Counted from the first letter of the stretch, positions 27,307-46,283 are shown. The stretch is DNA of 53,076 bases from a virus (IMGVR_UViG_3300038393_002038:1-53076); one strand, 5' to 3'. Notes: generated by a model from the sequence alone, not told the origin. Numbers and translations: made by a program.

Positions 27307-27351
27307 AAAAAGCCACACACCCTTAAAGTGCATGGCTTTCGTAGAAGCTCT
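27307..27351 (-). promoter_or_regulatory. Conserved leader attenuator copy 1
   Basis: AGAGCTTCTACGAAAGCC-stem-GGCTTTTT upstream of ATG 27295. Confidence 0.85.
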
Positions 27352-27367
27352 TTTTGATATTGTAAAA

Positions 27368-27384
27368 GTAATAAAATTTATTAC
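27368..27384. promoter_or_regulatory. 17-bp palindromic operator
   Basis: GTAATAAAATTTATTAC. Confidence 0.7.
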
Positions 27385-27403
27385 TTATTTTAAAATAATT
27401 TTT

Positions 27404-28798
27404 TTAGATTCTTCGTGCATAAATTACACCGATATTATCAACAATGTTTTTTGCTCCCTGATTCACTATGATATAGTCGGTTGGCTGAGGATTTGAAGCC
27501 TGACCTGGCGCCATCCTGTTCGTAGAAATAGCATGACCTGTATATCCATCGCCCTTATTAATAGCAACAGTAATCTGGCCTACCTGATTTGCCTGAAAAC
27601 CGCCCGGGTAATTCACCGGCCTTAAAACATCTGGCAATCCCTGAACATCAAAATTATTTAATCCTTTTTCGGACATATACCTGCTGTCAGGCATTCTAAA
27701 CTTTTTAAGCGTTGGGTCTAGCGCAAACTGTCCGGCCCTTGAAGAATCCACCGGATCCGTCGAAGATGCGGTATATCTGTGTGTAGCAGGAAGAACATTA
27801 TTGAGCCACCACCACATTCTTCCATATTCGTCACCATCATACCAGCCTGCAGATTCTGGTAGTACATTGGGGTGTGATAAATATCCTAGTGTCACTTTTT
27901 CTCCAACGTTCACTCCTTTGTAATCCCCGATAACTTCCCAATATGCCGTGCCACTATCATCCACAAATTTCCTGATTAACAAATGTTCCCCACGGCTTAC
28001 CCAAAACTCAGAAAACAAAATACTGGAACTGTTGAAGCCATTAAATCGAAGTGTATCTGTTCCGGAAAACAATATCTTTACCTGTACCGCTGTTCCGCCA
28101 ACAGAATTATCAAAATAATATCCTTTATCTGTTGAAATAGCCGAAAGACTGCAAACCGTGATAACCTGAGTACTTCCAGTGCCAAGGCACCTAATTCTTG
28201 TATTTATTTCATCAGTAGTGAGGGTTCTTGCCCCTTCAGTAACTGTAGTGATTCCGGTATATAGGCCTCCACCAGAGCTGCTTGTTGTCGAAATACCAGT
28301 ATCATAGGTAATCTCAATAATTATCTTTTCGCTCAGGGCAAAGGCTACATTATTAAGCATTGAAACTGTTCCAACGGTATTATCTGAAGAAAATTCAGTG
28401 CCCGGCTCATAATACCTGAAGGATTCTTTAAAAACGCCGGTAACATTTTTGCCAATAAGATAAGGGTCTGTAATTGACATCGCGCCCTCCACAGGATCAT
28501 ATGTGCCACCGCCACCACACGTGTAGAATCTTCGCTCCGCCTTCACTTCATTAGTTAATGCATCGACAATAAGCTGCGTTTGTAATGTGCCAAGAGAACT
28601 ATCATCAGGAGATTCATAATAAGAAACGTAATAATTTTCAGGATCCAAACCCGGAATAACAAAAGTGTAGCTTGTCTTTGGCATAGGAATCCATGTTTCC
28701 CACACAACCGTTGAGGGCGAAGAAACTTTTGCAGCAGTAACGTGTAGAAAATCTGTGTAGTTTACAGTTCCTAAAACAACTTTTAAATTTACAGACAT
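27404..28798 (-). CDS. Tail fibre/collar-domain protein
   Basis: C-terminal collar-like GQF...FRMPD.R...PGGFQ; position after hub genes. Confidence 0.7.
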   Translation of the reverse strand: MSVNLKVVLGTVNYTDFLHVTAAKVSSPSTVVWETWIPMPKTSYTFVIPGLDPENYYVSYYESPDDSSLGTLQTQLIVDALTNEVKAERRFYTCGGGGTYDPVEGAMSITDPYLIGKNVTGVFKESFRYYEPGTEFSSDNTVGTVSMLNNVAFALSEKIIIEITYDTGISTTSSSGGGLYTGITTVTEGARTLTTDEINTRIRCLGTGSTQVITVCSLSAISTDKGYYFDNSVGGTAVQVKILFSGTDTLRFNGFNSSSILFSEFWVSRGEHLLIRKFVDDSGTAYWEVIGDYKGVNVGEKVTLGYLSHPNVLPESAGWYDGDEYGRMWWWLNNVLPATHRYTASSTDPVDSSRAGQFALDPTLKKFRMPDSRYMSEKGLNNFDVQGLPDVLRPVNYPGGFQANQVGQITVAINKGDGYTGHAISTNRMAPGQASNPQPTDYIIVNQGAKNIVDNIGVIYARRI

Positions 28799-28808
28799 TT
28801 TATATTTT

Positions 28809-29801
28809 TTATTCGTTAGAAATATTATATACAGGAACTACGTTGGCACTTCCCTGGTTGCTCAGATCGCCAAATACCTTGGCTTCTACAATAACCGAAG
28901 TGACTAATTTTTTGGTAGGGTCCACATCCACGGTGAAGATTTGACTATTCCTGTTGAGGCCTGATTCAACCGTCACTTTCAGTCCACGTTTGGCATAGTT
29001 GCCGTCTCCGTCCGCTGTGGTGTATTCCAGTTTTGATCCATCTGCCATGCCGAAAGGATTTCCGTCTATAAGTACGTTATCACAGCTCCATATCTGATCT
29101 ATAAGGTTGATTATTTCGTCCGGTAATCCGTAAAACTCGCTCTTGGCTAAAACTCCATCCCCGGAAGTCCCAAAATATACGGGCCATTGCTTGGCGCTGC
29201 GACTGCTTAACAAAACAGGGTCGTATTTTTCGTCACGGTATCTTTCATCAGCCCTTACCTTGTCAATGTTGCCAAACATTCCTGTTACCCTGAGTTGAAA
29301 CTGAATACCGGTCTCAAAAATGACATCGTTATGATAACGGCTATTCCAATAATTTAAAAGAAGTGTGTTTTGAAGTTGATCTCCGCTGACATACTGAACT
29401 CCAGACATTAATATTTTTTGTTGCGCTCCCGATCCAAGAAGAACCTGAACATAATAAAGGCCCGCATCAAATTCACCGAGATTAATAGATACCTCATAAA
29501 CGTAGGTTCCCGCCTGGTATTTATTGGGGATTTTATTCAAAGCCGGGAAAGCCTGCACTACCGCGCCGTTTTCATTTAATAAGTTTACAACAATAGGATC
29601 GAAAGAGCTTTCAAATTGAAGATAGATAATGTCTGTCGTTTGCCAGATTTGAATATAATCATCTTGCTGTTGCCAGAAATAAAGTCGTTCCTTAAACGGA
29701 AAGGAACCGAAATGCTTTGTGAAGTAAGCAGGAAGATTTGCCCGGGCAACATCATAGAACCGGATTGGATTCAGCTCTGGTATTGAAAATTGATTAGCCA
29801 T
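28809..29801 (-). CDS. Minor tail protein
   Basis: Position; beta-rich sequence. Confidence 0.65.
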   Translation of the reverse strand: MANQFSIPELNPIRFYDVARANLPAYFTKHFGSFPFKERLYFWQQQDDYIQIWQTTDIIYLQFESSFDPIVVNLLNENGAVVQAFPALNKIPNKYQAGTYVYEVSINLGEFDAGLYYVQVLLGSGAQQKILMSGVQYVSGDQLQNTLLLNYWNSRYHNDVIFETGIQFQLRVTGMFGNIDKVRADERYRDEKYDPVLLSSRSAKQWPVYFGTSGDGVLAKSEFYGLPDEIINLIDQIWSCDNVLIDGNPFGMADGSKLEYTTADGDGNYAKRGLKVTVESGLNRNSQIFTVDVDPTKKLVTSVIVEAKVFGDLSNQGSANVVPVYNISNE

Positions 29802-32232
29802 AATAATCTATTAAATTTTGTAATTGATTTTCGGGAACCGACAACAACTGTAAGCTTTGAACGGCCCTGCTCGACGGCGCCGCGCTTACCGTATTAGCAA
29901 TACCAACATACATCGTACCCTGAAAGGGAAACCTGAATAATTGTAAAGGATTTGCGTCCAACAGATCTTCCATGTCATCGGGTACGCTTCCTTTAAAATC
30001 AAAGCGCACCGGCCAGAAAAAAGGAGCGTCCAGGTCTCCTATTGTTACATCCGCATTCTCAACAACACCACCGCAAATGAGTTTATTATTTTTGTCTGAA
30101 GAAATAAATTTAAAAACTTTTGAGTCGGATCTATACTGACACGACCTTATCCATGCACCATTATTGAGAAACATTCTTTTGGGCGATAAGGGAAGATTAA
30201 AAATTGTTGCCGCCTCTAAAATCCCTGTTGCAGATACATTCAATGAGCGGTCCAGATTATAATGATCCGGATCGTCTCCGAGTGCAGGCTGCAACTCATT
30301 CTCAATAGCTAAAACATAATTGTCGTTATCAGTAGGGTAGCTGGTTGTATCCTGACCGAGTTGCGTGATCCTTATCTTCTCAATCTCATAAGGCATAGCT
30401 TTTATTGGGCTTACCTTATCGACAGTAGCAGGATTGGAAGTTGTTCCCAATGAGAAAATCATCGTGTCGTTGGTTTCCTCGTTGGCATTAAGTACGCCGA
30501 CGTCACTGCTTATAGCAGGATAACCAAAATGAATCTCGTTGAAGAGAAAAGACTTGTCCAGAGAAACTTTTAAGGATTGCGAAACTATTTCAGGAAGATC
30601 AATTATATTATTGCGGTCTATCAGGTTTTGTTTTCTGTCGAAAAGAATCGAACTACCAACAAGTTGAATGCCTACACTGTCGAAAGAATCCCAGAATTTA
30701 TAAAAATCGGTAAAGGGAATTTTCATTGTGGCGCCGGCTATATTCCTGATAGCATTGGCTGAAGTGAAAACATTGTTTTTGTAGGTTTGAAAGTAGCTGC
30801 TTATGGCTGCTTTCAGGTTGCCTTCAGTTACCTTATTCATGAGTTGCTCAAACAGATATTGCCCTCTGAAGGCACGAACATATGTGGGAGCATACCGCGT
30901 TACGAGACCTATTTTGAACTTCGAATTTTCGGTGAACTCAAAGGCAGTTGTGTTGTCTGAGGCTTGTGCAAACTGGCCGCCCCTAAACAAGGATTCGCCG
31001 GCCTGCAAAGAAATATTTTTATTAAAAGTGGCTGTAAAGGTTTCGCCAATATCACTGACACTAAGTGAAGGAAGAGACAAAACAGTTTGGGCGTATTCAT
31101 TAAGCTCATCACTTTTACTTGAAATGAAGCCAAACTTTATACCGGCACCAAAAGGCCAAACGGCTGTAACCTTTATCTCAATGGTTCCGGAAACATTAAC
31201 CGTGATAGTGTTTATTCCTGCATTGGTAATAAGAACATTGAGGCTTGCCATCCTTGTTGCAAATGTGTCAGATTCTTTTTCGAGCTTTTCTGTTTGTGAA
31301 AAAACACCTGTACTGTCACCATCAGAAGAGACAAAAGCACAGGGACCAAAGAAATTCCTTCCATAATCGCCGGCACTGATTGGAAGTTGATCAACATCCT
31401 TGTAATTCAAACTGTCATGCATGTTAATGCCATCCATCTTGACCCAAATAGCATCCGGAACTTCCATAGGAAATTCGAATACCGTGCTTTCGTTTGCCTT
31501 AAGATACTTGGGAAGTCCATCTTCAAGGCACGTGCACGCCACCTTACTGCCTGTATGAGCAAACGTTGTAAGGTCCAACTGAGAGCGAAAAATCTGCTTA
31601 TACCAAAATCCGTAGGTGGTCTCAATGTTTCCGTCACTGGTGCACATTTGTGCCGTCACATCGATTGCAGGATTTGAGACAATTAATTTAAGGATCCCTG
31701 AAGATGGAATGACGAAAGGAAAAACTTTTGATTGCCCCGGTTCCAAATAAGGCAACACATTGCCTGAGTAATAATAAGAGCCATCGGAATTTTTTATTAC
31801 AAGATATACGACGGTGGCGTCATCTGTTGGAGTTAACTTTACATATACTGTGGTGCCAGGATTACCGGTAAGAGTGATACTATTGTCCACTCCTGCCACA
31901 ATCGTGGACAAATTGATCGTTCCTTTTACAGTATCATAATTAAGACGTTGTGCAGCAATTGAAAGGAAGGTATCTTCAACACCGAGAACATAAAAAATAT
32001 ATTTCAGGATAGCAGCCCCATCTTCAACGAAGGATAGTGAATTGCTAACACTCCGGTCCACGCCCCAATAGTTTTTATTGCGGACATTTTTGATCATAAT
32101 GTCAAGCCATCCTGCAGGAGCAAAATTGAGGAAATAAGGTTGAGCGCTCTTTGATACACCCTTACTATCCACTTTGTAAAAGTTGTAGTTACTATCCTGG
32201 ATCGCAAAAATGAAGTCTCTACCGGCTGGCAT
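29794..32232 (-). CDS. Minor tail / baseplate hub protein
   Basis: 812 aa, downstream of tape measure. Confidence 0.65.
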   Translation of the reverse strand: MPAGRDFIFAIQDSNYNFYKVDSKGVSKSAQPYFLNFAPAGWLDIMIKNVRNKNYWGVDRSVSNSLSFVEDGAAILKYIFYVLGVEDTFLSIAAQRLNYDTVKGTINLSTIVAGVDNSITLTGNPGTTVYVKLTPTDDATVVYLVIKNSDGSYYYSGNVLPYLEPGQSKVFPFVIPSSGILKLIVSNPAIDVTAQMCTSDGNIETTYGFWYKQIFRSQLDLTTFAHTGSKVACTCLEDGLPKYLKANESTVFEFPMEVPDAIWVKMDGINMHDSLNYKDVDQLPISAGDYGRNFFGPCAFVSSDGDSTGVFSQTEKLEKESDTFATRMASLNVLITNAGINTITVNVSGTIEIKVTAVWPFGAGIKFGFISSKSDELNEYAQTVLSLPSLSVSDIGETFTATFNKNISLQAGESLFRGGQFAQASDNTTAFEFTENSKFKIGLVTRYAPTYVRAFRGQYLFEQLMNKVTEGNLKAAISSYFQTYKNNVFTSANAIRNIAGATMKIPFTDFYKFWDSFDSVGIQLVGSSILFDRKQNLIDRNNIIDLPEIVSQSLKVSLDKSFLFNEIHFGYPAISSDVGVLNANEETNDTMIFSLGTTSNPATVDKVSPIKAMPYEIEKIRITQLGQDTTSYPTDNDNYVLAIENELQPALGDDPDHYNLDRSLNVSATGILEAATIFNLPLSPKRMFLNNGAWIRSCQYRSDSKVFKFISSDKNNKLICGGVVENADVTIGDLDAPFFWPVRFDFKGSVPDDMEDLLDANPLQLFRFPFQGTMYVGIANTVSAAPSSRAVQSLQLLSVPENQLQNLIDYYG

Positions 32233-32941
32233 CTGAATAGTATTTAATTGTAGTAGTGTTTTTTATTTGTCCACACAGCATGTTTCTTAGTTTGCCATAT
32301 TTAATATTAATATCTCTTGCTGCGTCTTTTATACAACCATATACTTTCCCATTATTAACATCAACAACTTTCCGTGCTAAGTTTGTTTTATCTCCCAAAA
32401 GTCTCTCTCTCGCTGCCTTTTTATGAGCTTCTGTTGGTATATAAACAATCACACCTTTCATTCTTTCGCTTTGCCTTTTCTTAGATTCCGCTGACCATTT
32501 TTTACCAAGGTTAAACTTTTTACCTTTCATAAAATCGCTGTGGCTTTTCCTGAATTCATCGCTTTTTTTGTGGCCTAAAGCATAATGATTACCAAGAGCT
32601 TTTTGTCTATTTGCCTCACGGAGCTCTTTGGTCATTCTGTAACCCAATACACTGCCTGCTTTTTTAAGAATATTGAACGAAGGTTTTATTGTATCAATAA
32701 AATGTTGCTCTTTTTCGATAAGTCTACTTTTGTCAGAAACTATTTCTAAAACATCAAAATACAGATCATCTATTCCGTACTTATTTATGTGCGATTGCAG
32801 ACGAATGTTTACATGTTTCTGCAATCTTAAATCACTGAGATGTTGCCTTTTTCTGGCAGCAAGATTAATAGCGCTGCCAACATAGCATCTATCTGGCTTA
32901 CTTTTGCTTTTTATGATATAAATGCAACTTATCTTGTCCAT
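32219..32941 (-). CDS. GIY-YIG homing endonuclease with NUMOD3-like repeats
   Basis: CIY.I.......CYVGSA..R...H, E..EQ, FNI. Confidence 0.9.
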   Translation of the reverse strand: MDKISCIYIIKSKSKPDRCYVGSAINLAARKRQHLSDLRLQKHVNIRLQSHINKYGIDDLYFDVLEIVSDKSRLIEKEQHFIDTIKPSFNILKKAGSVLGYRMTKELREANRQKALGNHYALGHKKSDEFRKSHSDFMKGKKFNLGKKWSAESKKRQSERMKGVIVYIPTEAHKKAARERLLGDKTNLARKVVDVNNGKVYGCIKDAARDINIKYGKLRNMLCGQIKNTTTIKYYSDASR

Positions 32942-32954
32942 CGTTGTATAAAAT

Positions 32955-33001
32955 AAAAAAGCCCGATTCCATTGCTGAAATCAGGCTTTCGTTGAAGCTC
33001 T
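32955..33001 (-). promoter_or_regulatory. Conserved leader attenuator copy 2
   Basis: AGAGCTTCAACGAAAGCC-stem-GGCTTTTTT upstream of ATG 32941. Confidence 0.85.
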
Positions 33002-33021
33002 TTTGTTATGTAAAAGTAATA

Positions 33022-33546
33022 TTAAAAATTCATTGTCTCGTCTGGTTTATTCATGGCTTCCTTCAAGCTACTGATGGTGTTTAAAATTTCATCATTCACC
33101 GCAACAAGCATTCTTTGGTAGTATTTTTTCTCAAATCCTGGCGCTTGGTTTTGTATGGGTACCTGAATTCTTCCACCATCATAATATTCTCCGGAAAGGC
33201 CCGTGATCTCATACTTGTATTTACCGTTTTTGAAATAAAGTTTTACCGTGTGGCTAACATATAACCTCTGTCCGTCTGAAAAGAAACCTGGAACATAAGG
33301 AACATCAAAAACTCCCTTTCCAATTAGTATCCCTGCATCTTTGTCCTGCATTTGAATAACATCATTCGCTGACTTATATTCACTCACAAACCAAGCTTTT
33401 GCACGATCAAATAATTCTGCTTTACTTACGGTAGAATCCAACATTACAACATCAGTGTACATTACGGTACCTTCTTTTTCAGGCAATATTTTCTGAGCAG
33501 AAGTCAAAAAAGGCAAAAAGAATAAGAGCGTAAAATATTTTTTCAT
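33022..33546 (-). CDS. DUF4468-like exported protein (moron)
   Basis: Signal peptide; SK.ELF.RAK.WF...YKSANDVIQ..DK..G.LIGKG. Confidence 0.75.
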   Translation of the reverse strand: MKKYFTLLFFLPFLTSAQKILPEKEGTVMYTDVVMLDSTVSKAELFDRAKAWFVSEYKSANDVIQMQDKDAGILIGKGVFDVPYVPGFFSDGQRLYVSHTVKLYFKNGKYKYEITGLSGEYYDGGRIQVPIQNQAPGFEKKYYQRMLVAVNDEILNTISSLKEAMNKPDETMNF

Positions 33547-33579: not shown

Positions 33580-36500
33580 TTACCAATTTGTGTTTTCCTC
33601 AACATATTTAGTTTGACTACTTCCCCATTTCCAAATTGCTTCCATGCCAACATTTGAACTTCTCAGGCTCAGTTCCTTTTTGTTGGCAATTGAAGATAAC
33701 AACGGCCGCAAAATGTTTGTCTGCCTCTGTAAAGCAAGTTCTATCTGATCGGCGCTATTATCTCGCACTGATCCTACATTTAAAACAGGCATTGCAAGTG
33801 CCTTCATCATTGAAAAGAAGTTTGGATAGATCACGTCATTTTTCTTCACATAGGTAAGCGTGTCAGTTGAAGGTGTTTTTTCAATGGTTCCATCTTCTCG
33901 TTTAATATATTCCGGAACGCCGCCATCCCCAACTATCGCAGGTCCCTCATAGTTGTCCTTAAGATTTTTACCATGCTTATATTTTGGAACCGGTGTAGCA
34001 ATAGCAACGGCAAGTTGTGCAGCGCCAAGAGCTCCGATTAAAACCGATAATGGAATATTCGGAAGTGCTTTAACTACGGCCACGGCTGTTGCCAAAACTA
34101 TATTAAATATGGCTGTTGCTTTTTGCGCCCTCGCATTCTCTTCATCTGCCTGCTTTTGTTTTAAGGCTATCTCATCTTTTTGCGCTTGTACTCTTGCATT
34201 TAAAATCGTAATCTTATCTGCTTTTTCCTGCTCAGCAAGACCGGACGCGTTGATCAACTCAATTTGTCTGGCAGAATAAGCGTCTAATGCGTCGCTTTGA
34301 TCCTGCAAAGCGTTCTTTTGCCTTGTAACCATTCCATTGATTGCTCCCTCAATAACTGAAAAAACCTGTGTTCCAATATCTTTAATTTTATTAAATGCAT
34401 CAACCAGGGCATTTAATGAATCATCGGTAATTTTCTTATCCTGGTTTGACAGATCTGCTTTTAATTTACTAAGCTGTCTGTATAAATCGCTTTCCTTTCC
34501 AACGGCTTCCTGCACGGCTTTTAACTCATCCGTAACCTGTTTGATCCTGTCGTCATGAACTTTTAATTCAGAGTCTGAAAGACCTGCAACGCTTTGTCCT
34601 TTGAGATCGTTTAGCTCTTTTTGTAACTCAATCTCAACTTCAGCAGCAGATTTGGACGCGGCCAAAGACTTTTCGATGTTTTCGATCTGTATTTGCAGGC
34701 TATTCTTTGCATAATCATCGTCAAGTTTTAATTTTTCCTTATTGTAATTACCGGCAGCAATCTCTCCGTTTTTGTACATTTCATTGAGGTCAACAACCTG
34801 CTTACTATAACTTTCTTCCAAGCTTGCATTGCTAGCAGCGGTTTCTTCAGCAATCTTCTTTAGCGCCTTGTCGCTTTCGAAAGCATATTGCTCATAATAA
34901 TCCTTAACGATTTTTATTTGCTGCAGGCTGGCATCTTTAGAAAGATCGATAACAGCATTATTAAAGTCAGCAATAAGCTTCTTAAGCTCTTCATCTGTGA
35001 TTTTTTTATTACTGATTTCAAAAAAACCTTCTTGTTTGATCCGTTCAATATCCGGATCACTGATACCCGCCGATGAAAGATCGCTGGTATATTGAGCTTC
35101 CAGCGATTGTTTTCTAGCTTCAATAGATTTTTTTAAAGCTTCTAGTCGTTGCGCTTCTGTAAGAGCATCATTGTTATAAATATCCTGATTGGTTTGGGAA
35201 ATACGGTCGTAAATAGCTTTTTGAACGGCTGTGACGGCTGCAAGATCCTTTAATCTGAAATCTTCTTTTTCCTTATAAATTGCTTCATCAGAATCTTTTT
35301 GGGCTGAAGCAATATCGGCTGCTGCTTTTTTGGCCGCAATTAACTTATCTGTGGTGCTAACAGTAGGATCGTTTTGAGTGGAAATATTCTCAGCATTGAT
35401 AACCTTGATCTTTCCAGCGAGATTGCTCTTCAAGGCATCCAGCCTTTGGGCAAGTGTGGACCTGTCATTGTTTAAGATACGTTCATTGGCCGCAGTTTGA
35501 GCATCTGATTCGATCTGGACCATAGATAACTTATATTTCCTTAAATCATCATCGGAAAGTTTTATCTTTTGGTTTTTAAGGTTTTCAACTTGTGCTTCTG
35601 CGTCTGCGGATTCATTGAGGGCAGAAAGTCCTAAGTCTAAATTTGCTTTTCTGGCATCATAATCATCCTTATAAGCCTGAATTCTGTCATTATATCCTTC
35701 AAGAATTTTGTCATATTTTGGATTTCCTTTGTTGGCGGCATTATCCTCAAATTCTTTTTTAAACTGTTGCTCTATTCGTAACTGATTAGCCGCTTCAAGT
35801 GCTTGTTGTTGAGCTAAAGCAACTTTTTCTTTGGTAACGCCAAGTGTTTTTACATCATCAGCCGCATTCTTTGCTCTCAGTTCAGCAACTTTTAAATCCA
35901 ATGCAAGACTCTCTGATTGTGTTACTCCTAAAGCTTTTCTTTTGTCTACTATTTTCTGCAGGTCGGCAAGCTCTTCCTGAGAAGTTAGTTTACGAATATC
36001 GTCATACTGTTTGGTGGCATCAATAAGGTCTTTTATGGTTTTAACCAGATCTTTATTGGCTTTTTCTACTGAATCGATAGCGTTATTCCAGTTGGTGATT
36101 GCCTTGTAAATCTCATAAATAGCAACAGCTAATCCGACAATTACCAAACCTATACCAGTGGCCGCAATAGCTGTGGCCATAGTACTTGCACCAGCAGCAA
36201 CGGCCCCTTCAGAAGCGGCAACTGTATCCAGTCCCTCTGCGAGCGCTACAGCTCCAACTGCCTGTGCTTCCATACCTGCGGCTGCGGGAGCGCTGGCAGC
36301 GGCAAGCTCGGTACTTGCTGTAGCTGACGCCTGTTCAGCAGCGGCAGCCTCGCCAAGCGGAGCAACAGAAGCCCCCGCGGCGGCTCCAAGCTCTGCCTTG
36401 GCACCTGCAGCCGCTTCAGTTAAGGCGGCGTCCTTCGACACAGCGGCAGCATTTGTATTGACAGCAGTTGTATTTTCAATCGCTGCTTTTGTTGCTTTTT

Positions 36501-37923
36501 CAGAAGCGTTGACATCTTTTATTAAAGCATTGTTTTTATTAAGAACCGCGGTATTTACAGCAGCAATACCGTCGGCAACTTTATCCTGAACATCAGATAA
36601 TCCACTGTCAGCATCCGCGGCCGCACCTGTAGCAACAGTTCCTGCAACCTTCGCGGCAGCGTTTTTTATTTGAGCCGCCGTGTTTAAATCGAGTGCCGCT
36701 GTTGATTCGCCGGTAACTTTTGCCACAAGCGACTCAGCAGCTGCAAGAAAAGAGGTTTTTACGGTATTGAGTGCTGTGGCAATGGCACTCTTCTCACTTA
36801 TTAACTTATTAAACTCAGCTAACCCCTGTAACACGTTCATTATTGCTACTAACTTGTAAAGTTCCTTTTCTACTTTTTCATTCCCATCTGCAAATAAGGC
36901 TGCTGCTCCGGCTCCTACGGCATACGCTCCGCCTAATCCCCTTGCAGCAGCGGTTAATCCGGCCAGTACCGGCGAATCACTTTGTAATAAAGCCTGCTGT
37001 TCTTTAAAATTCTTTACATCACGTGCAGCATTGTTTACACTGGTTTGCAGCTCCTGAAAAGTCTTTGTTCCTCCAAGGCCGGCCTCATACATCGTACGCA
37101 GGGCGTTTTCGCTTTGCCTTAATTCTGATGTTAATGTAGAGAATCCTTTCGTTTGCTGGGCACTTAGATTGCCTAATATTTCAACTTCTTTTTGAAGTTG
37201 CTGGCCTGAAGTGGTATTTTCTCTTTGTGCCTGTGTGAGTTGATCTAGTTGAGTTTTAGCTTCGGCAAATCCTTTTTGCAAGATACCGACTGCGCCTGTA
37301 TAGTTTCCTACATTCCTTTGGAACTGGCCCACGGAGGCGTCAATAGTTTTTAAAACGGTAGCAAGGTCATTAGCCTTTTCGGCAGCGGCAGTAGCCTGTT
37401 CTTTAAATTCTGGATTGATAAGTGCCTGAGCGGACAACGCTTTGGCTGTTTTTTGCGCATTCTGGTATTCCTGGTTAAGCAGCTGATATGAATCCCGAAG
37501 GCCAAGCGTATTGATAGCGGCTTCCTTGTTGGCGGCATTCTGTTGTGTCTGTTGCACCTTTAGTTCGGCTATTTGTTTTGCCTCATCGGTACTCAGTGAA
37601 GCAAGTTTTTCCTTTTCTTTTTGAAGCTGTTTGGCTGATGCTGATAAATCGTTTTGTGCCGTCACATTTTGTTTTGTAGCATCCGTGCTTTGCTTTAGTG
37701 TTGAGGTTTGAGCAGCAATAGTATTGTTAAGGTTTTGAATTATTGGAGCGGCCTGTGATACACTCGAAACAAAATCTTTTATTCCGGATACCCCCTGCAT
37801 ACCAATTTTTATATCTTTTAGCTTATCAAAAGCAGATTCCAGTTGTTCAAGTTCACCAAGGGCAAACTGTGTATCATCAGCGAAGCCTTGACGGTCAATA
37901 TATTTACTTAATAGTTCATCCAT
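33580..37923 (-). CDS. Tape measure protein
   Basis: 1447 aa helical, Ala/Gln/Lys-rich, QRNVGNY motif, hydrophobic segments. Confidence 0.85.
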   Translation of the reverse strand: MDELLSKYIDRQGFADDTQFALGELEQLESAFDKLKDIKIGMQGVSGIKDFVSSVSQAAPIIQNLNNTIAAQTSTLKQSTDATKQNVTAQNDLSASAKQLQKEKEKLASLSTDEAKQIAELKVQQTQQNAANKEAAINTLGLRDSYQLLNQEYQNAQKTAKALSAQALINPEFKEQATAAAEKANDLATVLKTIDASVGQFQRNVGNYTGAVGILQKGFAEAKTQLDQLTQAQRENTTSGQQLQKEVEILGNLSAQQTKGFSTLTSELRQSENALRTMYEAGLGGTKTFQELQTSVNNAARDVKNFKEQQALLQSDSPVLAGLTAAARGLGGAYAVGAGAAALFADGNEKVEKELYKLVAIMNVLQGLAEFNKLISEKSAIATALNTVKTSFLAAAESLVAKVTGESTAALDLNTAAQIKNAAAKVAGTVATGAAADADSGLSDVQDKVADGIAAVNTAVLNKNNALIKDVNASEKATKAAIENTTAVNTNAAAVSKDAALTEAAAGAKAELGAAAGASVAPLGEAAAAEQASATASTELAAASAPAAAGMEAQAVGAVALAEGLDTVAASEGAVAAGASTMATAIAATGIGLVIVGLAVAIYEIYKAITNWNNAIDSVEKANKDLVKTIKDLIDATKQYDDIRKLTSQEELADLQKIVDKRKALGVTQSESLALDLKVAELRAKNAADDVKTLGVTKEKVALAQQQALEAANQLRIEQQFKKEFEDNAANKGNPKYDKILEGYNDRIQAYKDDYDARKANLDLGLSALNESADAEAQVENLKNQKIKLSDDDLRKYKLSMVQIESDAQTAANERILNNDRSTLAQRLDALKSNLAGKIKVINAENISTQNDPTVSTTDKLIAAKKAAADIASAQKDSDEAIYKEKEDFRLKDLAAVTAVQKAIYDRISQTNQDIYNNDALTEAQRLEALKKSIEARKQSLEAQYTSDLSSAGISDPDIERIKQEGFFEISNKKITDEELKKLIADFNNAVIDLSKDASLQQIKIVKDYYEQYAFESDKALKKIAEETAASNASLEESYSKQVVDLNEMYKNGEIAAGNYNKEKLKLDDDYAKNSLQIQIENIEKSLAASKSAAEVEIELQKELNDLKGQSVAGLSDSELKVHDDRIKQVTDELKAVQEAVGKESDLYRQLSKLKADLSNQDKKITDDSLNALVDAFNKIKDIGTQVFSVIEGAINGMVTRQKNALQDQSDALDAYSARQIELINASGLAEQEKADKITILNARVQAQKDEIALKQKQADEENARAQKATAIFNIVLATAVAVVKALPNIPLSVLIGALGAAQLAVAIATPVPKYKHGKNLKDNYEGPAIVGDGGVPEYIKREDGTIEKTPSTDTLTYVKKNDVIYPNFFSMMKALAMPVLNVGSVRDNSADQIELALQRQTNILRPLLSSIANKKELSLRSSNVGMEAIWKWGSSQTKYVEENTNW

Positions 37924-37936: not shown

Positions 37937-37983
37937 AAAAAAGCCACTACAACTTTCGCTGTAATGGCTTTCGATGAAGCTCT
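37937..37983 (-). promoter_or_regulatory. Conserved leader attenuator copy 3
   Basis: AGAGCTTCATCGAAAGCC-stem-GGCTTTTTT upstream of ATG 37923. Confidence 0.85.
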
Positions 37984-38007
37984 TATTTTTAAAAGTTAAC
38001 TTATAGG

Positions 38008-39406: not shown

Positions 39407-39416
39407 TTTATTACTT

Positions 39417-40104: not shown

Positions 40105-40106
40105 AC

Positions 40107-41069
40107 TTATGCTGTTTTGGTTAAAATCAGCGGAGTTCCTTCAATACCGGTTACATCGGCAGCGTCCAAAGTTGGAGCGTCTACCAGTGCAAGCTCGATC
40201 TGTGCGCCTGTAGTGAGAGCAGTATATGCTGTGGCGTCAAAAGTCACAGTCCAGCACTTGTTTGTTGTGTCATAAGCAACACTGGTAATGGCCAGTGGTG
40301 TTGCAAATGAAGCGCCTGTCTTTGCAGTCCAAAGTGACGAATCAGCCAGTAATGCCTGGAACACAGTAGTGTCTGCCACGTTAAGGAAGCTAAGGATGTT
40401 TGAAGTGCTTATTTTCAAACCAATACTCTTAACGTTGGTGGTGGAAGCAACAGCCTCGTACAAAAGAACATCATTCAATCCAACAATATCTGAAGCGTTG
40501 AATGAAGTGCCGGCAAACTCGGCATTTTCAACGAAATCACGGCTATCAATGATAGAGAGCGATATTTTTGTTGTTTTTGCGCTGTTGCCGTCCTCGAATC
40601 CTTTCGGCTCAACACCTACGAGATATTTGGCTGCTTTAAAATTCTTATCACTGTCCAACACTCCCCATATTTTACTCTTGTCATCCATGATGAAGCACGG
40701 AACGATAAGACCATCAAAAGCAATGAGCTTCTTTTCTAAGGAAGACCCCGCCAGTACATCAAATTCATACCCTGCTTTTGAACGAAGCAATTTCAGCTGC
40801 AGGCCATAGCCTAATGTTGCCATTTTAGCGGCAGTGGTCTTATCGGTATTACCCTGAATTACAGGAAAGGGAAAAAGCTTATCTGAAGAGCCTGTTGCCT
40901 GTTTCAACTTGCTCTGAAAAGCCGCCTCGAATGTAGCATTGGTAGCATAATCGGACGGAGCAAAGGATGCTGAACCGGCGATGATTTGCACCGGAAGCCC
41001 CCTGGTTGGATCGCAATCAATAGCGCCAGTGTTGGCACCGATTGAACTGCATATTGAAAATCCTGTCAT
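40107..41069 (-). CDS. Major tail tube protein
   Basis: Position, size, high-expression codon style. Confidence 0.7.
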   Translation of the reverse strand: MTGFSICSSIGANTGAIDCDPTRGLPVQIIAGSASFAPSDYATNATFEAAFQSKLKQATGSSDKLFPFPVIQGNTDKTTAAKMATLGYGLQLKLLRSKAGYEFDVLAGSSLEKKLIAFDGLIVPCFIMDDKSKIWGVLDSDKNFKAAKYLVGVEPKGFEDGNSAKTTKISLSIIDSRDFVENAEFAGTSFNASDIVGLNDVLLYEAVASTTNVKSIGLKISTSNILSFLNVADTTVFQALLADSSLWTAKTGASFATPLAITSVAYDTTNKCWTVTFDATAYTALTTGAQIELALVDAPTLDAADVTGIEGTPLILTKTA

Positions 41070-41100
41070 GTTTTGTTATTTAAATTTGATTTAAAATTGT

Positions 41101-41616
41101 TTAGCAATTAAGGTTGTTTTGGATCTTAAGGTTTTGGACTTTTAGCTGCAAAACATCAACAACGTCACTTAATACATTCTGCTGGTTTTCGCCCCAATAA
41201 GGATATTTGGTTTCCAGTGTTCTCAATTGACTTCTATAACCAAGAATAGCCGGATGAAGTGCAATCTGATTCTTAAGCTCGGTAACAATAGGATCCACGA
41301 TGGGAGTGTAAGTATTATCTTCACGCTCTTTTCGTTTATAAGTCGGATCGCTACCTGTTATGATAAATAACGTAAGCTCGGGAACCTCTGCGTAAAGTGT
41401 CGGCCATTTGCTTGAAGTTACTGTTACCGGTTGTTTTAAAAGAACCAGCGGATACTTTTTATCGAAGCTTGCCGGATCTTCATTGTATTGCTTCAGTGTC
41501 TGGTTTAGCTCCCTGATTTCTTCATAATGAGAATAAACAGGACGACCAAGGACCGTGGCCACCGCTGCAACCCAATCGGTAAAAATATTTTCAATTGTAT
41601 ATGGAGGATTGTTCAC
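41101..41616 (-). CDS. Tail terminator-like protein
   Basis: Position; KYPLV.L. Confidence 0.6.
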   Translation of the reverse strand: MNNPPYTIENIFTDWVAAVATVLGRPVYSHYEEIRELNQTLKQYNEDPASFDKKYPLVLLKQPVTVTSSKWPTLYAEVPELTLFIITGSDPTYKRKEREDNTYTPIVDPIVTELKNQIALHPAILGYRSQLRTLETKYPYWGENQQNVLSDVVDVLQLKVQNLKIQNNLNC

Positions 41617-42197
41617 GTAAATGCATTTATGGTTTGTAAAAACTTGTTTGCATTATTTCTGTGGTAAGCTCCATACATGCCAGAAATGCGAAAAACAGAA
41701 TTCAACCAGTCGCTGTAAGTGTCTTTATTATTATAAAGGAAATCAAACAGCTCGCGGTTGATGTACACCATGTTATTCCACGCTTTCACCATCTTATCTA
41801 TGGGGGTTGCGGATATTGCATTTTCGGACTGCATAACACCTTCTCCTGTACCTCCGGTATTCGTAACATTTGTTTTTTGATACTGGTAATACACATAATT
41901 AGCAATTAAACTGCCTTTGTACGTGCCGGTGGTGTAAATAAGCCCCCGCCATTTTCTGACTACTCCGTTAACATCTGTGTACTCTTTCCCATCTCTAAGG
42001 TCTGTCCACATTGGATCAATAGGAATTACTTTAAGTCCTGCTGTAAACGCAGTATAAGTCTCATATCCGAGCAACCCGAGCAAGATTTCCGGCTCATACT
42101 GATTGATAAGCCAGTTTAATTTCCCTTGCACCGATTGCTCAGATAATTGACCAATGGAACAGTCACCAAAAAAATAAGATGTGTCTATTAATGACAT
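41613..42197 (-). CDS. Head-tail adaptor
   Basis: Position after capsid; LID.SYF, IANYVYY, AWN.MV. Confidence 0.65.
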   Translation of the reverse strand: MSLIDTSYFFGDCSIGQLSEQSVQGKLNWLINQYEPEILLGLLGYETYTAFTAGLKVIPIDPMWTDLRDGKEYTDVNGVVRKWRGLIYTTGTYKGSLIANYVYYQYQKTNVTNTGGTGEGVMQSENAISATPIDKMVKAWNNMVYINRELFDFLYNNKDTYSDWLNSVFRISGMYGAYHRNNANKFLQTINAFT

Positions 42198-42203
42198 TTT
42201 TGT

Positions 42204-42494
42204 TTATTTTATGCTCCCTATTCCAAGCGAAGCAAAGTGTTTTGCGCTTTCTTTTGAAACGACAATAACTCCTTCGGGCATCGTTTTTTCACCCTTCCAG
42301 CCGTCGGGGTATTTCACCTGAAACTTCACATCGTTAGGATGTGCGCTAACTGGATCGCCTTTTTTGGAGATTCTCTCCACGGTAACGGTGCCTACTTCAA
42401 GTGTTTTTTGTTCAGTTTTTGCGGCGCCGCTTTGATCAGAGCTGTTTGGCTGTTCAGCGCTTTCGGGTTTCGTTTCTTTTGTTGCTTTTGCCAT
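42204..42494 (-). CDS. Small head-region protein
   Basis: Directly after capsid. Confidence 0.7.
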   Translation of the reverse strand: MAKATKETKPESAEQPNSSDQSGAAKTEQKTLEVGTVTVERISKKGDPVSAHPNDVKFQVKYPDGWKGEKTMPEGVIVVSKESAKHFASLGIGSIK

Positions 42495-42522
42495 AACCTT
42501 AATTTTTATATTTTATAATTTA

Positions 42523-43824
42523 TTAGGTAGTGATGGCAGTTTTAATAGCAGCAAAGGTTTGTCCTTTCACGATTGCAGCAGCCCTGATAGAACTGATATA
42601 ATCGAAGTAGTACTGCTCAAGTACAGTACTGAACATATTCTGCGCGAAGTCTGTTCCGTTGTAACCAACACGAACGATTAAGCCACCACGCAAAATGATG
42701 TTATACTGCTTAAAGTCACCTACCAACAGGTCATCTGTTGCCATTGCCGGATTACCTACCATTGCAATACCACCAAGTGAGGCAGGAGGCATTAAGAAGC
42801 GGCCCTGTGAATCCATCTGGGTATTTACTCTGTGGTTTTTAAAGGTGCTCATTACAGCAGCGTTTGCACCCTGTCCGAAAGTAGCATTGTCAACCTGAGC
42901 CGCAGCAGCATCAATAGCGAGATAATCATTGTAGGCAGTTAAAGCGGCGCCATTTTTATACTCGGTACCGGTATTGTAGGCTGTAGCAGCAGAGATAATA
43001 TCAGCAAGTACAGCTGTGTTAATCCTGTTGACAAGATCCACGCGGCCTTTACCCATGATATCGGATTGCAAACGAGCGAAGTCTAAAGAAAACTCTTCAG
43101 TAAATCCTATCAGTGTTGCTTCTTTTTTGTAGGTAGAGCTCTTTAGTGTGTATGCATACTGGCTTAAAGGTTTTGATCCACCTTCAGCAACATTTGCAGA
43201 AGAGCCTGTTTTGGCAACCTCTTCATACCACATTGCCATCATGGTGTCATAAGAAGCGTTAATGATGTTGCAGAGGTCAAATACCCATGCTGAATTACGG
43301 TACTGGCTTATGATTGTTGAATCGCCACCTAAACGAAGCAGGGAAGCGGCATCAATAGTCTGGAAAATAGAAGCAGCGGTGCCGCCGTTAATTCCGGATA
43401 TTGAAGCAACAGGTCCAACAGTTTTAGTGCTGTCAAAAGGCTTCATCACAAATTCGCCCTTCTCTCCAACGTTGATCATGTAGGTTTTGTTCCCGGCCCT
43501 GGCAGAGTAAATCTGTCTAAGGTCGTTTTCGTCCTCCTTAAGCACTTCACTTATTGACTTGGTGCCGATCTCCTGAGTTTTCAACTTGGCGTTGATCTCG
43601 GTAAGTGTGGTACCTTGTTTTTCTGCGATTTCTTTTACTGCTGCAAGAGCTTCTTCGCTTGATTTTTTAAATGAGTTGAAAGTTTCTTCCGAAATCTTTC
43701 CTTTGGCTGCCTCATTAGCAAAGGCCTTCGCCTTTTCCTCGTAGGCATCCAATTCTTTTTTTATTGCTTCCTTGGCATCTGCGCCAACTTTTGCCTGCAA
43801 CGCGGCTAATTCTTCTGGTGTCAT
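42523..43824 (-). CDS. Major capsid protein (HK97-type with N-terminal coiled-coil domain)
   Basis: VAEGGSKP, LLVGDF motifs; follows protease. Confidence 0.88.
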   Translation of the reverse strand: MTPEELAALQAKVGADAKEAIKKELDAYEEKAKAFANEAAKGKISEETFNSFKKSSEEALAAVKEIAEKQGTTLTEINAKLKTQEIGTKSISEVLKEDENDLRQIYSARAGNKTYMINVGEKGEFVMKPFDSTKTVGPVASISGINGGTAASIFQTIDAASLLRLGGDSTIISQYRNSAWVFDLCNIINASYDTMMAMWYEEVAKTGSSANVAEGGSKPLSQYAYTLKSSTYKKEATLIGFTEEFSLDFARLQSDIMGKGRVDLVNRINTAVLADIISAATAYNTGTEYKNGAALTAYNDYLAIDAAAAQVDNATFGQGANAAVMSTFKNHRVNTQMDSQGRFLMPPASLGGIAMVGNPAMATDDLLVGDFKQYNIILRGGLIVRVGYNGTDFAQNMFSTVLEQYYFDYISSIRAAAIVKGQTFAAIKTAITT

Positions 43825-43833
43825 TGTTTTTAA

Positions 43834-44697
43834 TTAATAATTGATAAATTTTGTTTCCTTGATCGCTCTGAGTAGATCAAAACTCTTTCGTTCATTCTCA
43901 GTTTGAAGAGTGCTTTTGGGCGGCTCAGTCTCAGTGTCTTCAGACGGCTGATCAGTTGAATAAACAGGGGTAAGTATATTGGCGCCGAATAGTACGGCTG
44001 ATACTTCAAAAATTTTGCATTCTGTCACGGCCCAGAAATAGCCTTTTGAATCAACGCTGTCTTTGTTGATCACCTGCGGATAGTATTTATCCCAATTCTT
44101 TTTTTCCTGCGCATCTTCCTCGTTCTTACTATCCAGGCAAAGGGAAATAGCCACGTATTGCAGGCCGATGGAATGCTGCTTTATTTGTCCATCTTCATAG
44201 AGATTATAAGCCTTACAATCATAATCTTCACATACCACGCTGGACATCATTAATGCCTGTGCTTTCTTTATGTCGCTTTGGAAGTTAAACATTGACAGAT
44301 CAATGTCTTTTGTGTACAGCACAGGATCCCTGCCGATGATATCATCTAAGGTGTAGCCGTGATTCTTTAAGTGGTAAACCAGTTTCTGACCTGAAGCTCC
44401 GATGTCTGCGATTGATTTTTTCCAGCAATCTTTGATCATTACGTCTCTTTGGCTGTCGCACCAACCGGACATGTTTCCTATGATGTCAACAGCAATTTCT
44501 TTTGTATCGCTGTCGACCTCTCCCGCGTTCTTAGCCTTTTTTCCTGTCTTCACAGGCGTGGACTTGCTGTATCCGAATTCTAAATCATCAGTCGTCGTAG
44601 GCATGGCCTTTTTTTGAGCAATCAACTTGCTTTTGTTTTTCCTTAAAAAAGAAAACAATTCTTCCTGAGATTCAAACTTTGGTACAAGGTTTTTCAT
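43834..44697 (-). CDS. Prohead maturation protease
   Basis: DS..D, H..NH, QHSIG, EVSAVLFGAN..TP. Confidence 0.85.
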   Translation of the reverse strand: MKNLVPKFESQEELFSFLRKNKSKLIAQKKAMPTTTDDLEFGYSKSTPVKTGKKAKNAGEVDSDTKEIAVDIIGNMSGWCDSQRDVMIKDCWKKSIADIGASGQKLVYHLKNHGYTLDDIIGRDPVLYTKDIDLSMFNFQSDIKKAQALMMSSVVCEDYDCKAYNLYEDGQIKQHSIGLQYVAISLCLDSKNEEDAQEKKNWDKYYPQVINKDSVDSKGYFWAVTECKIFEVSAVLFGANILTPVYSTDQPSEDTETEPPKSTLQTENERKSFDLLRAIKETKFINY

Positions 44698-44794
44698 TTC
44701 TGAATGATTTTATTTTCGCTTAATGATTTTTGCTTTTCAGCGTTAATTTTTTTTGCTTCCTTTACGTTTACTTCTTTTTTTTCTGTATTCATAA

Positions 44795-46225
44795 TTAATT
44801 ATTGTTGTTTCCGGAACTGCTTGAATTATCCGCAACAGTTATCTGCGCCGGTGAATTAAATTTTTTACCAAGGGCAACCCATTGATAGTAATACATGTCT
44901 CCATCAGGTATAGGATCCATCTGGTTAATCGCCAGCCATTGATTAGCTGTGATGATATTATTTTGCCACTCAATAAGTAATCCCTGATTTAAATAAAGCC
45001 TTGCACGGCCGCTGTTGATTTTGTCTTCCTGAAGAACAGGAATATGGCTAAAATCTTTTTTAATCGATACTCCATAATCAGCGGCGCCAAAGAATTCACT
45101 AATTTGTTCATACACCATATTCGAAAAGGGAATTACAAAATCCTGATACAGTTGTTTTTTGAAGGCTTCTGCCTCAGTACCTGATATTGATGTTGTATTT
45201 GCAGCAGCAAGAAGTCTGTAGGGATAATTCAGGGCGTCTGCTATTACCATTGTATCATCTTCGGCCCACTCAGTTAGCATAAGGTCCCTGTAAGGCATCC
45301 CCATTTGTTGCCATTTTAAAGCGCTGTTGGATACGATGAACTTCCATTGATTACTCTTTAATCCGTACCTGAGAAGATCGGTCTGTATCTCCTCTTTCTC
45401 ATCCTCATCCAACGGAATAACACCGGCCGGATCTTTTTCGGGTGTGAGAATTCCAAGTGCCCCACGGTAATGAATCAATGCTCCCTTACTGTTGTAAATC
45501 CCTATAACATTCGAGATATTTTGTTGGATAGACTTTATGGGACTGTTAGGTAGAAACAAGTGATTAAAGCCCGGCGTAATATCTTTGATAATGATTACGT
45601 CATCCTGACTCAGTGTAGTGATTTCGTTTCCATAACGGACCACTATCGATTCGATATAATTCCCTTTATCACTGAAGAAAGTTTTTTTGCTGGTGGTGAT
45701 TTCGCACATGTAGGGCGGAATGTTCCACATCGCAGTAGCGTCTTCATTTTTAAAGCCAACAGGCTTCACAGGAAGCCACACAGCGTAACCAAATAGGCGG
45801 AGATAAATCGCCGTTTGTGCGTCAAACTGTTTACCGTTTTGCATAGGATTCGGCCTGAGCAGTAATTTTTGAATCTTCTTGGTGTACGGATTGGTTACAT
45901 CTTTGTCTTTGGCATCAGCAAATCTTATTTTTCCATTCACATAAGCATAAGCCTGTTTATTAACTATAGAGTAAATAGGAGCGCAGCATTCATAAGCTTT
46001 GACAATATCTTTGAGACCGCCATAAGAAAAGAAAACATCAAAGGATCCCGCTCCGCCAAAATTCCATCCTTCATTTCCAAAAGCAATACCACCAGAGCGG
46101 TAATTTATAGGATTGATAACGTCTGACTGGATCGTGCCGCCAAGCCCCATGTCAAGCCCGAAAAAAGACTTTGCAGCGTTTCCGCTTATCCTTGCGATTT
46201 TATTAAATGCTTTCTCTTTTGTCAT
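44795..46225 (-). CDS. Portal protein
   Basis: LL.RPNPMQ...F, LFGYA; HK97-like portal size and position. Confidence 0.88.
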   Translation of the reverse strand: MTKEKAFNKIARISGNAAKSFFGLDMGLGGTIQSDVINPINYRSGGIAFGNEGWNFGGAGSFDVFFSYGGLKDIVKAYECCAPIYSIVNKQAYAYVNGKIRFADAKDKDVTNPYTKKIQKLLLRPNPMQNGKQFDAQTAIYLRLFGYAVWLPVKPVGFKNEDATAMWNIPPYMCEITTSKKTFFSDKGNYIESIVVRYGNEITTLSQDDVIIIKDITPGFNHLFLPNSPIKSIQQNISNVIGIYNSKGALIHYRGALGILTPEKDPAGVIPLDEDEKEEIQTDLLRYGLKSNQWKFIVSNSALKWQQMGMPYRDLMLTEWAEDDTMVIADALNYPYRLLAAANTTSISGTEAEAFKKQLYQDFVIPFSNMVYEQISEFFGAADYGVSIKKDFSHIPVLQEDKINSGRARLYLNQGLLIEWQNNIITANQWLAINQMDPIPDGDMYYYQWVALGKKFNSPAQITVADNSSSSGNNNN

Positions 46226-46235
46226 TTCATAAAAT

Positions 46236-46283
46236 AAAAAAGCCGTAATACGTTTTAAGTATTACGGCTTTCGATGAAGCTCT
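46236..46283 (-). promoter_or_regulatory. Conserved leader attenuator copy 4
   Basis: AGAGCTTCATCGAAAGCC-GTAATAC/GTATTAC-GGCTTTTTT upstream of portal ATG. Confidence 0.85.

Follow-up and report, generated by a model that had tools for sequence, protein, structure and literature searches.

The DNA considered here is the virus record IMGVR_UViG_3300038393_002038, a whole record of 53,076 bases (CheckV 98%), to which we refer throughout as the window. On its minus strand four late-gene leaders each carry a copy of one conserved block that runs directly into a terminator-like hairpin shortly before a start codon. The first genes after the four sites are the portal gene (44795..46225, minus strand), with a match to the PHROG portal families at E 8e-16; a gene for a tape measure-like protein of 1447 aa (33580..37923, minus), with matches to PHROG 26705 and the tape measure family phrog_167; a GIY-YIG-type homing endonuclease gene (32219..32941, minus; PHROG homing endonuclease families, E 5e-27); and a gene for a tail protein of 1363 aa (23204..27295, minus). 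The last is taken from the list of open reading frames (ORFs), and its product has only a weak PHROG match, its N-terminus being 60% identical to that of the gene after the site at a related locus, L243. Upstream of the first site there is an ORF for a small zinc-ribbon protein resembling Com of phage Mu, and we suggest that this phage has its virion genes switched on by what is probably a member of the Com-type protein family.

The conserved block and its two hairpins

The pattern AGAGCTTC-WWC-GAAAGCC is present exactly four times on the minus strand of the window, and the 18-mer AGAGCTTCWWCGAAAGCC has four exact matches there, all minus, at 46266-46283, 37966-37983, 32984-33001 and 27334-27351, so that the block reads at all four late leaders as an earlier note on this DNA had described it. 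If up to 3 mismatches are allowed the 18-mer has 6 matches in the window, where 0.12 are expected by chance and none of 100 shuffles reaches 6; the remaining two, at 6161-6178 (plus) and 51297-51314 (minus), have 2 mismatches each and no hairpin. Counted over the whole record the motif is found four times in reverse and not at all in forward orientation, and the backwards control gave none. The generic frame GA-N4-C-N2-3-GA-N4'-C with four complementary pairs, searched on both strands of the 53-kb window, also has four matches, all at these sites. A covariance model, which the earlier note had proposed as a check, was built from the four window copies and 14 relatives (an alignment of 18 sequences) and recovers exactly four copies at 52-63 bits, the next match, at 19.9 bits, being the reverse strand of site 1. 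Rfam, also proposed there, has no family that matches the motif, either at gathering thresholds over the window or at E up to 10 for 10 loci. Contigs from four DNA runs cover the sites identically, and one diverged contig crosses site 2 with a spacer 1 nt shorter.

Site 1 (46236..46284, minus), before the portal gene, reads as RNA GA-GCUU-CAUCGA-AAGC-C overlapping GAAAGCC-GUAAUAC...GUAUUAC-GGCUUUUUU, with a folding energy of -18.8 kcal/mol and a covariance score of 62.2 bits. The same element with another inner stem is found before the tape measure gene (site 2, 37937..37984, minus; -21.5 kcal/mol, 62.8 bits), and again before the GIY-YIG gene and the overlapping gene for an 812-aa virion protein (site 3, 32955..33002, minus; -20.4 kcal/mol, 59.9 bits) and before the gene for the 1363-aa tail protein (site 4, 27307..27352, minus; -18.7 kcal/mol, 52 bits). 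Each copy runs directly into a different hairpin of 14-15 bp, with 5 G-C pairs, and then into a U-tract of 5-6 U. The inner stems were listed correctly in the earlier note and all of them pair, and its statement that the block overlaps the 5' arm of the terminator is borne out by sequence and by folding. The stems extend from GAAAGCC to GGCUUUU and have GCC/GGC at the base; their folding energies are between -18.7 and -21.5 kcal/mol. A G-C-rich stem-loop abutting a U-tract, the canonical feature of an intrinsic terminator, is present at sites 1-4, and no other terminator-like site on the minus strand in the late region is as strong as these four hairpins. In each case the ATG is 56-60 nt after the start of the element and 8-16 nt beyond the end of the U-tract, and the start codon is outside the hairpin.

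The block can also fold by itself, as GA-GCUU-C(NN)CGA-AAGC-C, in which 4 bp enclose a loop of six bases, with GA on one side of the stem and C on the other; the 19-nt RNA covering this Com-type site is aAGAGCUUCAUCGAAAGCC. The earlier note had mentioned GCTTC pairing with GAAAGC as a small competing hairpin. Such a hairpin does exist, but it is better given as 4 bp, GCUU/AAGC, with a 6-nt loop. Its 3' arm, AAGC-C, is positions 3-7 of the terminator arm GAAAGCC and thus the base of the 5' arm of the terminator, so that the two folds exclude each other. As the small hairpin alone is worth just -1.2 kcal/mol, against about -19 to -21 kcal/mol for the terminator, the terminator is predicted to form by default. 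With the small hairpin and its flanks held, however, all that is left of the terminator is an inner hairpin of 7-8 bp, three bases short of the U-tract, and the total is -7 to -10 kcal/mol. A hairpin that does not abut its U-tract is not a competent intrinsic terminator.

In the alignment of 18 sequences all 8 of the variable pairs of the terminator stems have compensatory changes, with 92.5% of cells paired as against 73.9% after shuffling, and the covariation score was reached by none of 500 shuffles. By this comparison the inner terminator stems are under structural selection.

A Com-like gene and a candidate Com target

The Com-like ORF upstream of site 1 (46369..46710, minus) is 113 aa long as listed, with the zinc-ribbon domain in roughly residues 8-45 (46540-46710), and provides the window with the Com-like gene that the earlier note had thought worth looking for. 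It was recognised by reading translations, having been missed by a CxxC...CxxC regular expression because the second Cys pair is Cx4C. Cys 10, 13, 33 and 38 are invariant in an alignment (A1) of the window ORF with four relatives from other motif-bearing loci. Comparison of A1 by hhalign with a second alignment (A2), of 12 Com-type ORFs and Mu Com, gave a probability of 97% and E 1.1e-10 over 39 columns, and BLASTP of the window ORF against Mu Com gave E 2e-4 over 17 residues. By profile comparison, then, the product of the window ORF is a divergent Com-like zinc ribbon homologous to Mu Com. A tblastn search with the ORF against isolate phages gave no match. With regard to the zinc-ribbon ORFs found beside the same RNA motif at other loci, 6 of the 10 tested pass the cutoff for PF10122 (Zn_ribbon_Com), with 29.3-39.6 bits.

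A tRNA-Met (CAT) gene (46406..46479, minus; found by ARAGORN, and by Rfam at 60.6 bits) is situated between the Com-like gene and site 1. At L052 there is also a tRNA-Met between Com-like gene and motif, and at L035 one about 400 nt upstream of the motif. If the tRNA-Met were excised from the window transcript, the com message would be left without a stop codon.

Com and the mom hairpin are textbook material. The Mu mom leader reads GA-AUGC-CUGCGA-GCAU-CC at the Com site, in the same register as the window block; all four stem pairs differ between Mu and the window, and pairing is kept in both. Systematic evolution of ligands by exponential enrichment (SELEX) with a Com zinc finger selected two copies of GAG(N)2CC, which are separated by 2-3 nt and surround a stem of 3-4 bp (PMC6483171). 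According to the same source, Com binds to a short hairpin close to the structure that inhibits translation and in doing so protects the GA dinucleotides; the hairpin is preferred and duplex is bound weakly, although an earlier study cited there had Com preferring the duplex form of its target (PMC6483171). In each half of the window sequence GAGCUUC-N3-GAAAGCC, four of the five positions that the SELEX consensus specifies agree with it. The protein-binding-like motif of the earlier note can thus be referred to a known type, the Mu Com site, and we predict that a Mu Com-type zinc-finger protein docks on the RNA at this 18-nt block.

The parallel with Mu Com and mom covers the protein, which in both cases is a small zinc ribbon with four Cys; the register of the target, with GA, a 4-bp stem, a C-N2-3-GA loop and then C; and the arrangement, in which the target abuts an inhibitory hairpin just 5' of the regulated gene and the regulator gene is immediately upstream on the same strand. 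There are also clear differences. In Mu the hairpin hides the Shine-Dalgarno (SD) sequence and the start codon and has no U-tract, whereas the window hairpin has the form of a canonical terminator, has bases in common with the Com hairpin and leaves the start codon outside; in Mu a single DNA-modification gene is involved, whereas the window has four sites and virion genes; and the window protein is below the Pfam threshold. Homologues of com are reported to accompany genes other than mom, for example DNA methyltransferase genes, in the mom position (PMC3299994). These FluMu-type pairs resemble the window in that a Com-like gene has a partner other than mom, but they concern one gene and DNA modification, and the sections of PMC3299994 drawn on here describe no link to terminators or structural genes.

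Site and gene in other phages

Two samples of other loci were assembled, one chosen by RNA and the other by protein. For the first, viral contigs were searched with the pattern GCTTC-N2-3-GAAAGCC-N12-30-GGCTTTTT, which gave 70 loci with 55 distinct cores. In flanks that were not part of the search, GA precedes 38 of the 55 cores and there is an A at -3 in 41 of them. A zinc-ribbon ORF ends within 160 nt upstream at 20 of the 36 GA-type loci that have at least 250 nt of upstream sequence, as against 1 of 16 others, and the sole locus in the latter group with such an ORF is a relative of the window, G004. The co-occurrence with Com-like genes that the earlier note had put forward as a check is thus strong. 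The start codon is outside the hairpin in all 38 GA-type loci, as is the SD sequence where one is visible, and for this reason termination fits these loci better than sequestration of the start site. A search of viral contigs with the exact 18-mer gave 10 single-copy loci, a number that is about chance by a rough estimate made without a control scan.

The second sample was chosen by the back-translated Com peptide EIKCPRCK only, and comprises at least 114 stretches, of which 92 distinct loci have enough downstream sequence. Among the loci listed, a fully paired GA-N4-C-N2-3-GA-N4'-C site is found within 300 nt downstream in 41 of the 92, and in none of the 92 either upstream or on the reverse strand. 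When pairing is not required the loci listed have 76 matches to the frame downstream, of which 53 have 4 of 4 pairs, whereas none of the 10 upstream matches and none of the 6 on the reverse strand is fully paired; 0.2 are expected from shuffles. The small stems among these peptide-chosen loci are of 22 different sequences. As this sample was chosen by peptide, the covariation of the small hairpin that these loci exhibit is independent of any choice of stem. Most of the peptide-chosen loci listed are Mu-like, with a hairpin over the SD sequence and start codon, and three (L031, L041 and L106) are terminator-fused. Taking the two independent samples together, we consider the link between site and gene to be general, as far as can be judged from sequence comparison.

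In genome contigs of bacteria and archaea there are 31 loci, 11 of them, one doubtful, with a zinc-ribbon ORF upstream. Going by the assignments of metagenome-assembled genomes (MAGs), those with an adjacent Com gene are on contigs of Ferruginibacter, Bacteroidales, Nitrospirota, Clostridia, Peptococcaceae, PVC, Deltaproteobacteria and Dehalococcoidia.

The window is not the only phage with more than one site. Further cases are L053/L063, L068/L097, L082, L062 and contig 3300038393_000976, and some of the second sites have different small stems, with the bases of the terminator altered to match. In the case of L062 (IMGVR_UViG_3300007776_000031) two Com sites share their small stem; one is fused to a terminator while the other precedes a hairpin that covers the SD sequence and ATG, and one Com protein may control both transcription and translation in that phage. 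In L047 and L056 there are tandem sites, GAGCGCC-TTC-GAGCGCC followed 31 nt later by GAGCTTC-AC-GAAAGCC and a terminator, between a Com gene for 39 aa and a gene for 541-545 aa.

In relatives of the window the portal, terminase and tail proteins are 50-67% identical, and the block is unchanged while the inner stems differ; sites 1, 2 and 4 are all kept in one relative or another. The element is before the portal gene in L094, L013, L052 and L228, whose portal proteins are 53-67% identical to that of the window. In L032 it is kept before the tape measure gene, with 45% identity of the tape measure over residues 598-1259 and 77% for the 320-aa protein encoded upstream, and in L243 it is between homologues of the 464-aa and 1363-aa proteins. 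The order in L094 is large terminase, small ORFs, a Com-like gene (67 aa, with its stop 3 nt before the motif), element and portal. Five portal relatives were also taken from viral contigs, and of these G004 alone has the motif, in the form ACAGCTTCATGAAAGCC after a tRNA, the other four having different sequence before the portal gene; the element is thus not universal in the clade.

Several observations point to the host. One Ferruginibacter MAG includes both the L228 and the L243 contig, the integrase of the window has Arm-DNA-bind_5 and SAM_5 domains, there are no SD sequences in front of the late genes, and DNA of the phage was found in soil and rhizosphere runs. Together these suggest a soil member of the Bacteroidota, with the proviso that binning of phage contigs into MAGs can err. 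A megablast search of 27200-47000 against isolate phages gave no match, and tblastn with the portal protein gave 21 records, 17 of them Polaribacter phages, with a best identity of 30.5%; there is thus no close cultured relative, and hence no published transcriptome that could be used.

With regard to the other genes of the window, the GIY-YIG gene directly behind site 3 (32219-32941, minus) overlaps the start of the gene for the 812-aa virion protein by 14 nt, and resembles a mobile gene that has come to lie between a regulated leader and the gene this leader originally served. At 12649-13155 (plus) there is a gene for another nuclease-associated protein, which has a NUMOD4 motif. A tyrosine integrase gene (51575-52774, minus), with arm-binding and SAM-like domains of Bacteroidota type, adjoins a tRNA-Asp gene (52951-53025, minus) at the end of the record, which suggests a temperate phage that integrates at tRNA-Asp. 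In the early region, at 5552-8269 (plus), there is a 905-aa fusion of an SNF2-type helicase and an N6/N4 DNA methylase; it is on the opposite strand to the sites and has no Com site nearby, and in this connection the Com-like proteins of Mu/FluMu-type prophages control DNA-modification genes. A pentapeptide-repeat protein (2-817, plus; Pfam E 5e-63) is encoded at the left end of the record beside the early genes. The Pfam matches among the 30 window proteins scanned are the integrase, an ERF recombinase, the SNF2-methylase fusion, the NUMOD4 protein, a lysozyme, a phosphoesterase and the pentapeptide-repeat protein, and no other transcription regulator was found among the 30.

Proposed regulation of the late genes

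There are promoter-like boxes close to three of the sites. A TAACTTTT box (37991..37998, minus) is 7 nt upstream of the AGAGC of site 2 and a TACTTTTA box (33011..33018, minus) 9 nt upstream of that of site 3, both being candidate Bacteroidota-type -7 boxes, and upstream of site 4 there is a palindromic promoter-like repeat, GTAATAAATTTTATTACTTTT (27364..27384, minus), that contains the TACTTTTA box. Overall, boxes of one or the other form are found 7-11 nt before sites 4 and 3, and less clearly before site 2. The repeat has the 21-nt form GTAATAA-N-TTATTAC-TTTT, and with up to 3 mismatches has 8 matches, which are 5 minus copies and 3 palindromic plus readings, a count reached in none of 100 shuffles. 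The five minus copies, at 27364-27384, 46715-46735, 46855-46875, 47990-48010 and 50040-50060, precede site 4, the Com-like gene and the small-terminase and post-terminase genes, and end in a box like the Bacteroidota -7 box; the palindrome is a candidate for a phage promoter with an operator for a dimeric regulator. All three, palindrome, site and terminator, also precede the orthologous tail gene in L243. If the boxes are promoters, the Com site would be at the extreme 5' end of the transcripts of sites 2-4.

We think it rather likely that the Com-like protein is a local antiterminator, which holds the small hairpin and so blocks the terminator. Without the protein the terminator fold would win over the small hairpin, and transcription towards the four modules (portal, tape measure, hub and tail protein) would end about 10-16 nt short of the start codon. 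Once enough of the Com-like protein had been made from its gene just 5' of site 1, it would bind the small hairpin and hold it, leaving the inner hairpin detached from the U-tract, so that there would be no termination and RNA polymerase would enter the module. The earlier note had proposed that each structural module is off by default through termination in its leader and is switched on by a factor that binds the block, and this interpretation is supported in so far as every part of it that could be tested on sequence held up. We infer that the Com-like protein binds RNA, that transcripts end at the U-tracts, that the modules are off by default, and that the protein acts on termination, and so as to relieve it, rather than on translation.

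There are several points that weigh against this proposal. We know of no case in which a Com protein acts as an antiterminator, and Mu Com is known solely as a translational activator. The window ORF has no match to PF10122 at E up to 1 (gathering cutoff 22.9 bits), whether as the whole protein or as the N-terminal 57 aa, and its second Cys pair is Cx4C where the other four members of A1 have CxxC. The ORF also reads through the tRNA-Met gene with no stop before it, giving 113 aa as against 52-67 aa in relatives, so that the true 3' end of the Com-like gene is uncertain. Each half-site departs once from the SELEX consensus, with U for C in one and A for G in the other. In the alignment, the outer 7 pairs of the terminator and the small stem are invariant because they were fixed by the search pattern. 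A neighbouring zinc-ribbon ORF is missing from 16 of the 36 GA-type loci, some of these being secondary sites, and from 20 of the 31 matches in genome contigs, so that the sequence alone is not diagnostic and plain terminators can produce it. The promoter boxes depend on resemblance to TAnnTTTG, which we take to be the Bacteroidota -7 consensus. Only 8-16 nt separate the U-tract and the ATG, a distance at which an effect on termination cannot be told from one on the access of ribosomes, and none of the 18 runs that match 37000-46999 of the window is on record as RNA.

The first alternative is translational activation as in Mu, with the Com-like protein controlling the access of ribosomes and termination being incidental or constitutive; opening of the lower stem would then expose the A/U-rich tract just before the ATG, on which ribosomes could land in a host without SD pairing. 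It is consistent with the short distance from U-tract to ATG, with 3-4 U being paired in the terminator fold, and with the presence in L062 of both a terminator-type site and one with the hairpin over the SD sequence and ATG. Moreover, the one Com activity demonstrated in the parts of the sources drawn on is activation of mom translation by remodelling of an adjacent hairpin (PMC6483171; PMC3299994). However, the start codon is never in the hairpin, at the four sites or the 38 GA-type loci, and the SD sequence is clear of it in hosts that use one. A G-C-rich stem that abuts 5-9 U is a canonical terminator, whereas the Mu-type hairpins that sequester starts have no U-tract. We therefore consider this explanation unlikely.

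It is also conceivable that the hairpins are constitutive terminators or insulators, with the block kept for stability of the 3' end, as an RNase site, or for autoregulation of com at site 1 only. The genome-contig matches with no Com-like ORF nearby would be expected on such an explanation, and AAAGCC...GGCUUU is favourable as the base of a terminator. It does not, however, account for the 5' extension AGAGCUUC-NN(N), which is outside the terminator stem and yet invariant at four sites with unrelated inner stems, and which is also kept in relatives whose flanking proteins are just 50-67% identical, nor for the GA flank of 38 of the 55 cores, which had not been searched for. Further, sites 2-4 are behind promoter-like boxes, and a promoter followed directly by a terminator makes little sense unless the terminator is regulated. 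Constitutive termination thus seems to us improbable.

Still less probable is that Com enhances termination or represses, binding the first half-site and the duplex base of the terminator to give negative feedback on late transcription. The second half-site is indeed double-stranded in the terminator fold, and the study cited by PMC6483171 found a preference for a duplex target, but the authors of PMC6483171 themselves found, in the sections used, a preference for the hairpin and weak binding of duplex. Binding of Mu Com opens the adjacent structure and does not close it, and if the product of a gene directly upstream of the portal gene repressed at sites in front of each virion module, it would not be evident how the late genes are ever turned on.

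That the block is a DNA operator for a dimeric DNA-binding protein (a GCTTC-N3-GAAGC-like dyad), or part of a phage-specific promoter, is hardly credible in spite of its partial dyad symmetry and the promoter-like boxes nearby, since all copies are on the coding strand, with none on the reverse strand at the 92 Com-linked loci listed, the stems covary with G-U allowed, which points to RNA, and the spacing to downstream elements changes with the length of the hairpin. A reading of the elements as small RNA genes with a conserved 5' seed was rejected as the main one, since they always stand directly in front of start codons and relatives have them in the same places.

For hairpin capture by a Com-like protein there are parallels in other systems. 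In antitermination by BglG, SacY and LicT at the ribonucleic antiterminator (RAT), and in ANTAR antitermination, a protein stabilises a small hairpin that overlaps the 5' arm of a terminator. The proposed logic is the same in the window, where the Com-type hairpin overlaps the 5' arm of the terminator, and several leaders can share one regulator. The differences are that the protein fold is unrelated, that the RNA motif is another one with no Rfam match, and that the window regulator is encoded by the phage, with no evident input from a ligand or phosphorylation. Among the 30 window proteins searched against Pfam none has a CAT/PRD or ANTAR domain, and Rfam has no match to a RAT or dual-hexaloop motif at the sites, even at E up to 10.

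The lambda Q and N systems are also similar, in that late genes are behind a promoter-proximal terminator that is overcome by a phage protein. However, Q and N modify RNA polymerase once, after which all terminators are ignored, whereas in the window each module has its own site fused to its own terminator, as local competition between hairpins would predict, an arrangement that speaks against loading at one site only. The Pfam scan, which covered 30 proteins but not many of the small ORFs, gave no match to a Q- or N-like family.

A search of open-licence PMC papers and bioRxiv, without supplements, found no report that couples Com-type proteins to terminators or to late or structural (virion) genes. 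What appears to be new here is the wiring of the Mu Com protein-RNA pair to intrinsic terminators at several late-gene leaders. We also put forward, tentatively, a wider proposal, which we think possible without regarding it as likely. In this proposal Com zinc fingers would, besides regulating DNA-modification genes, be widespread late-gene antiterminators in many phyla, acting by capture of a 14-nt hairpin that shares bases with a terminator, and the window would have a four-site regulon with three of the sites at transcript 5' ends. Each late promoter would first yield a terminated leader of roughly 48 nt with a Com site, and these short leaders would titrate the Com-like protein, giving a sharp threshold between early and late expression.

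The timing of virion gene expression is little understood in most non-model phages, and especially in phages of Bacteroidota and of soil bacteria. If our proposal is correct, a protein of 40-60 residues and an RNA site of 17 nt would be enough to gate whole structural modules, and the pair would be a very small and portable protein-RNA antitermination switch for use in engineering. It would also explain many of the unannotated zinc-ribbon ORFs that are found between terminase and portal genes. The pair of site and protein is present beside portal genes in phage contigs and prophages of many phyla, and the Com family would then have a general role in late gene expression.

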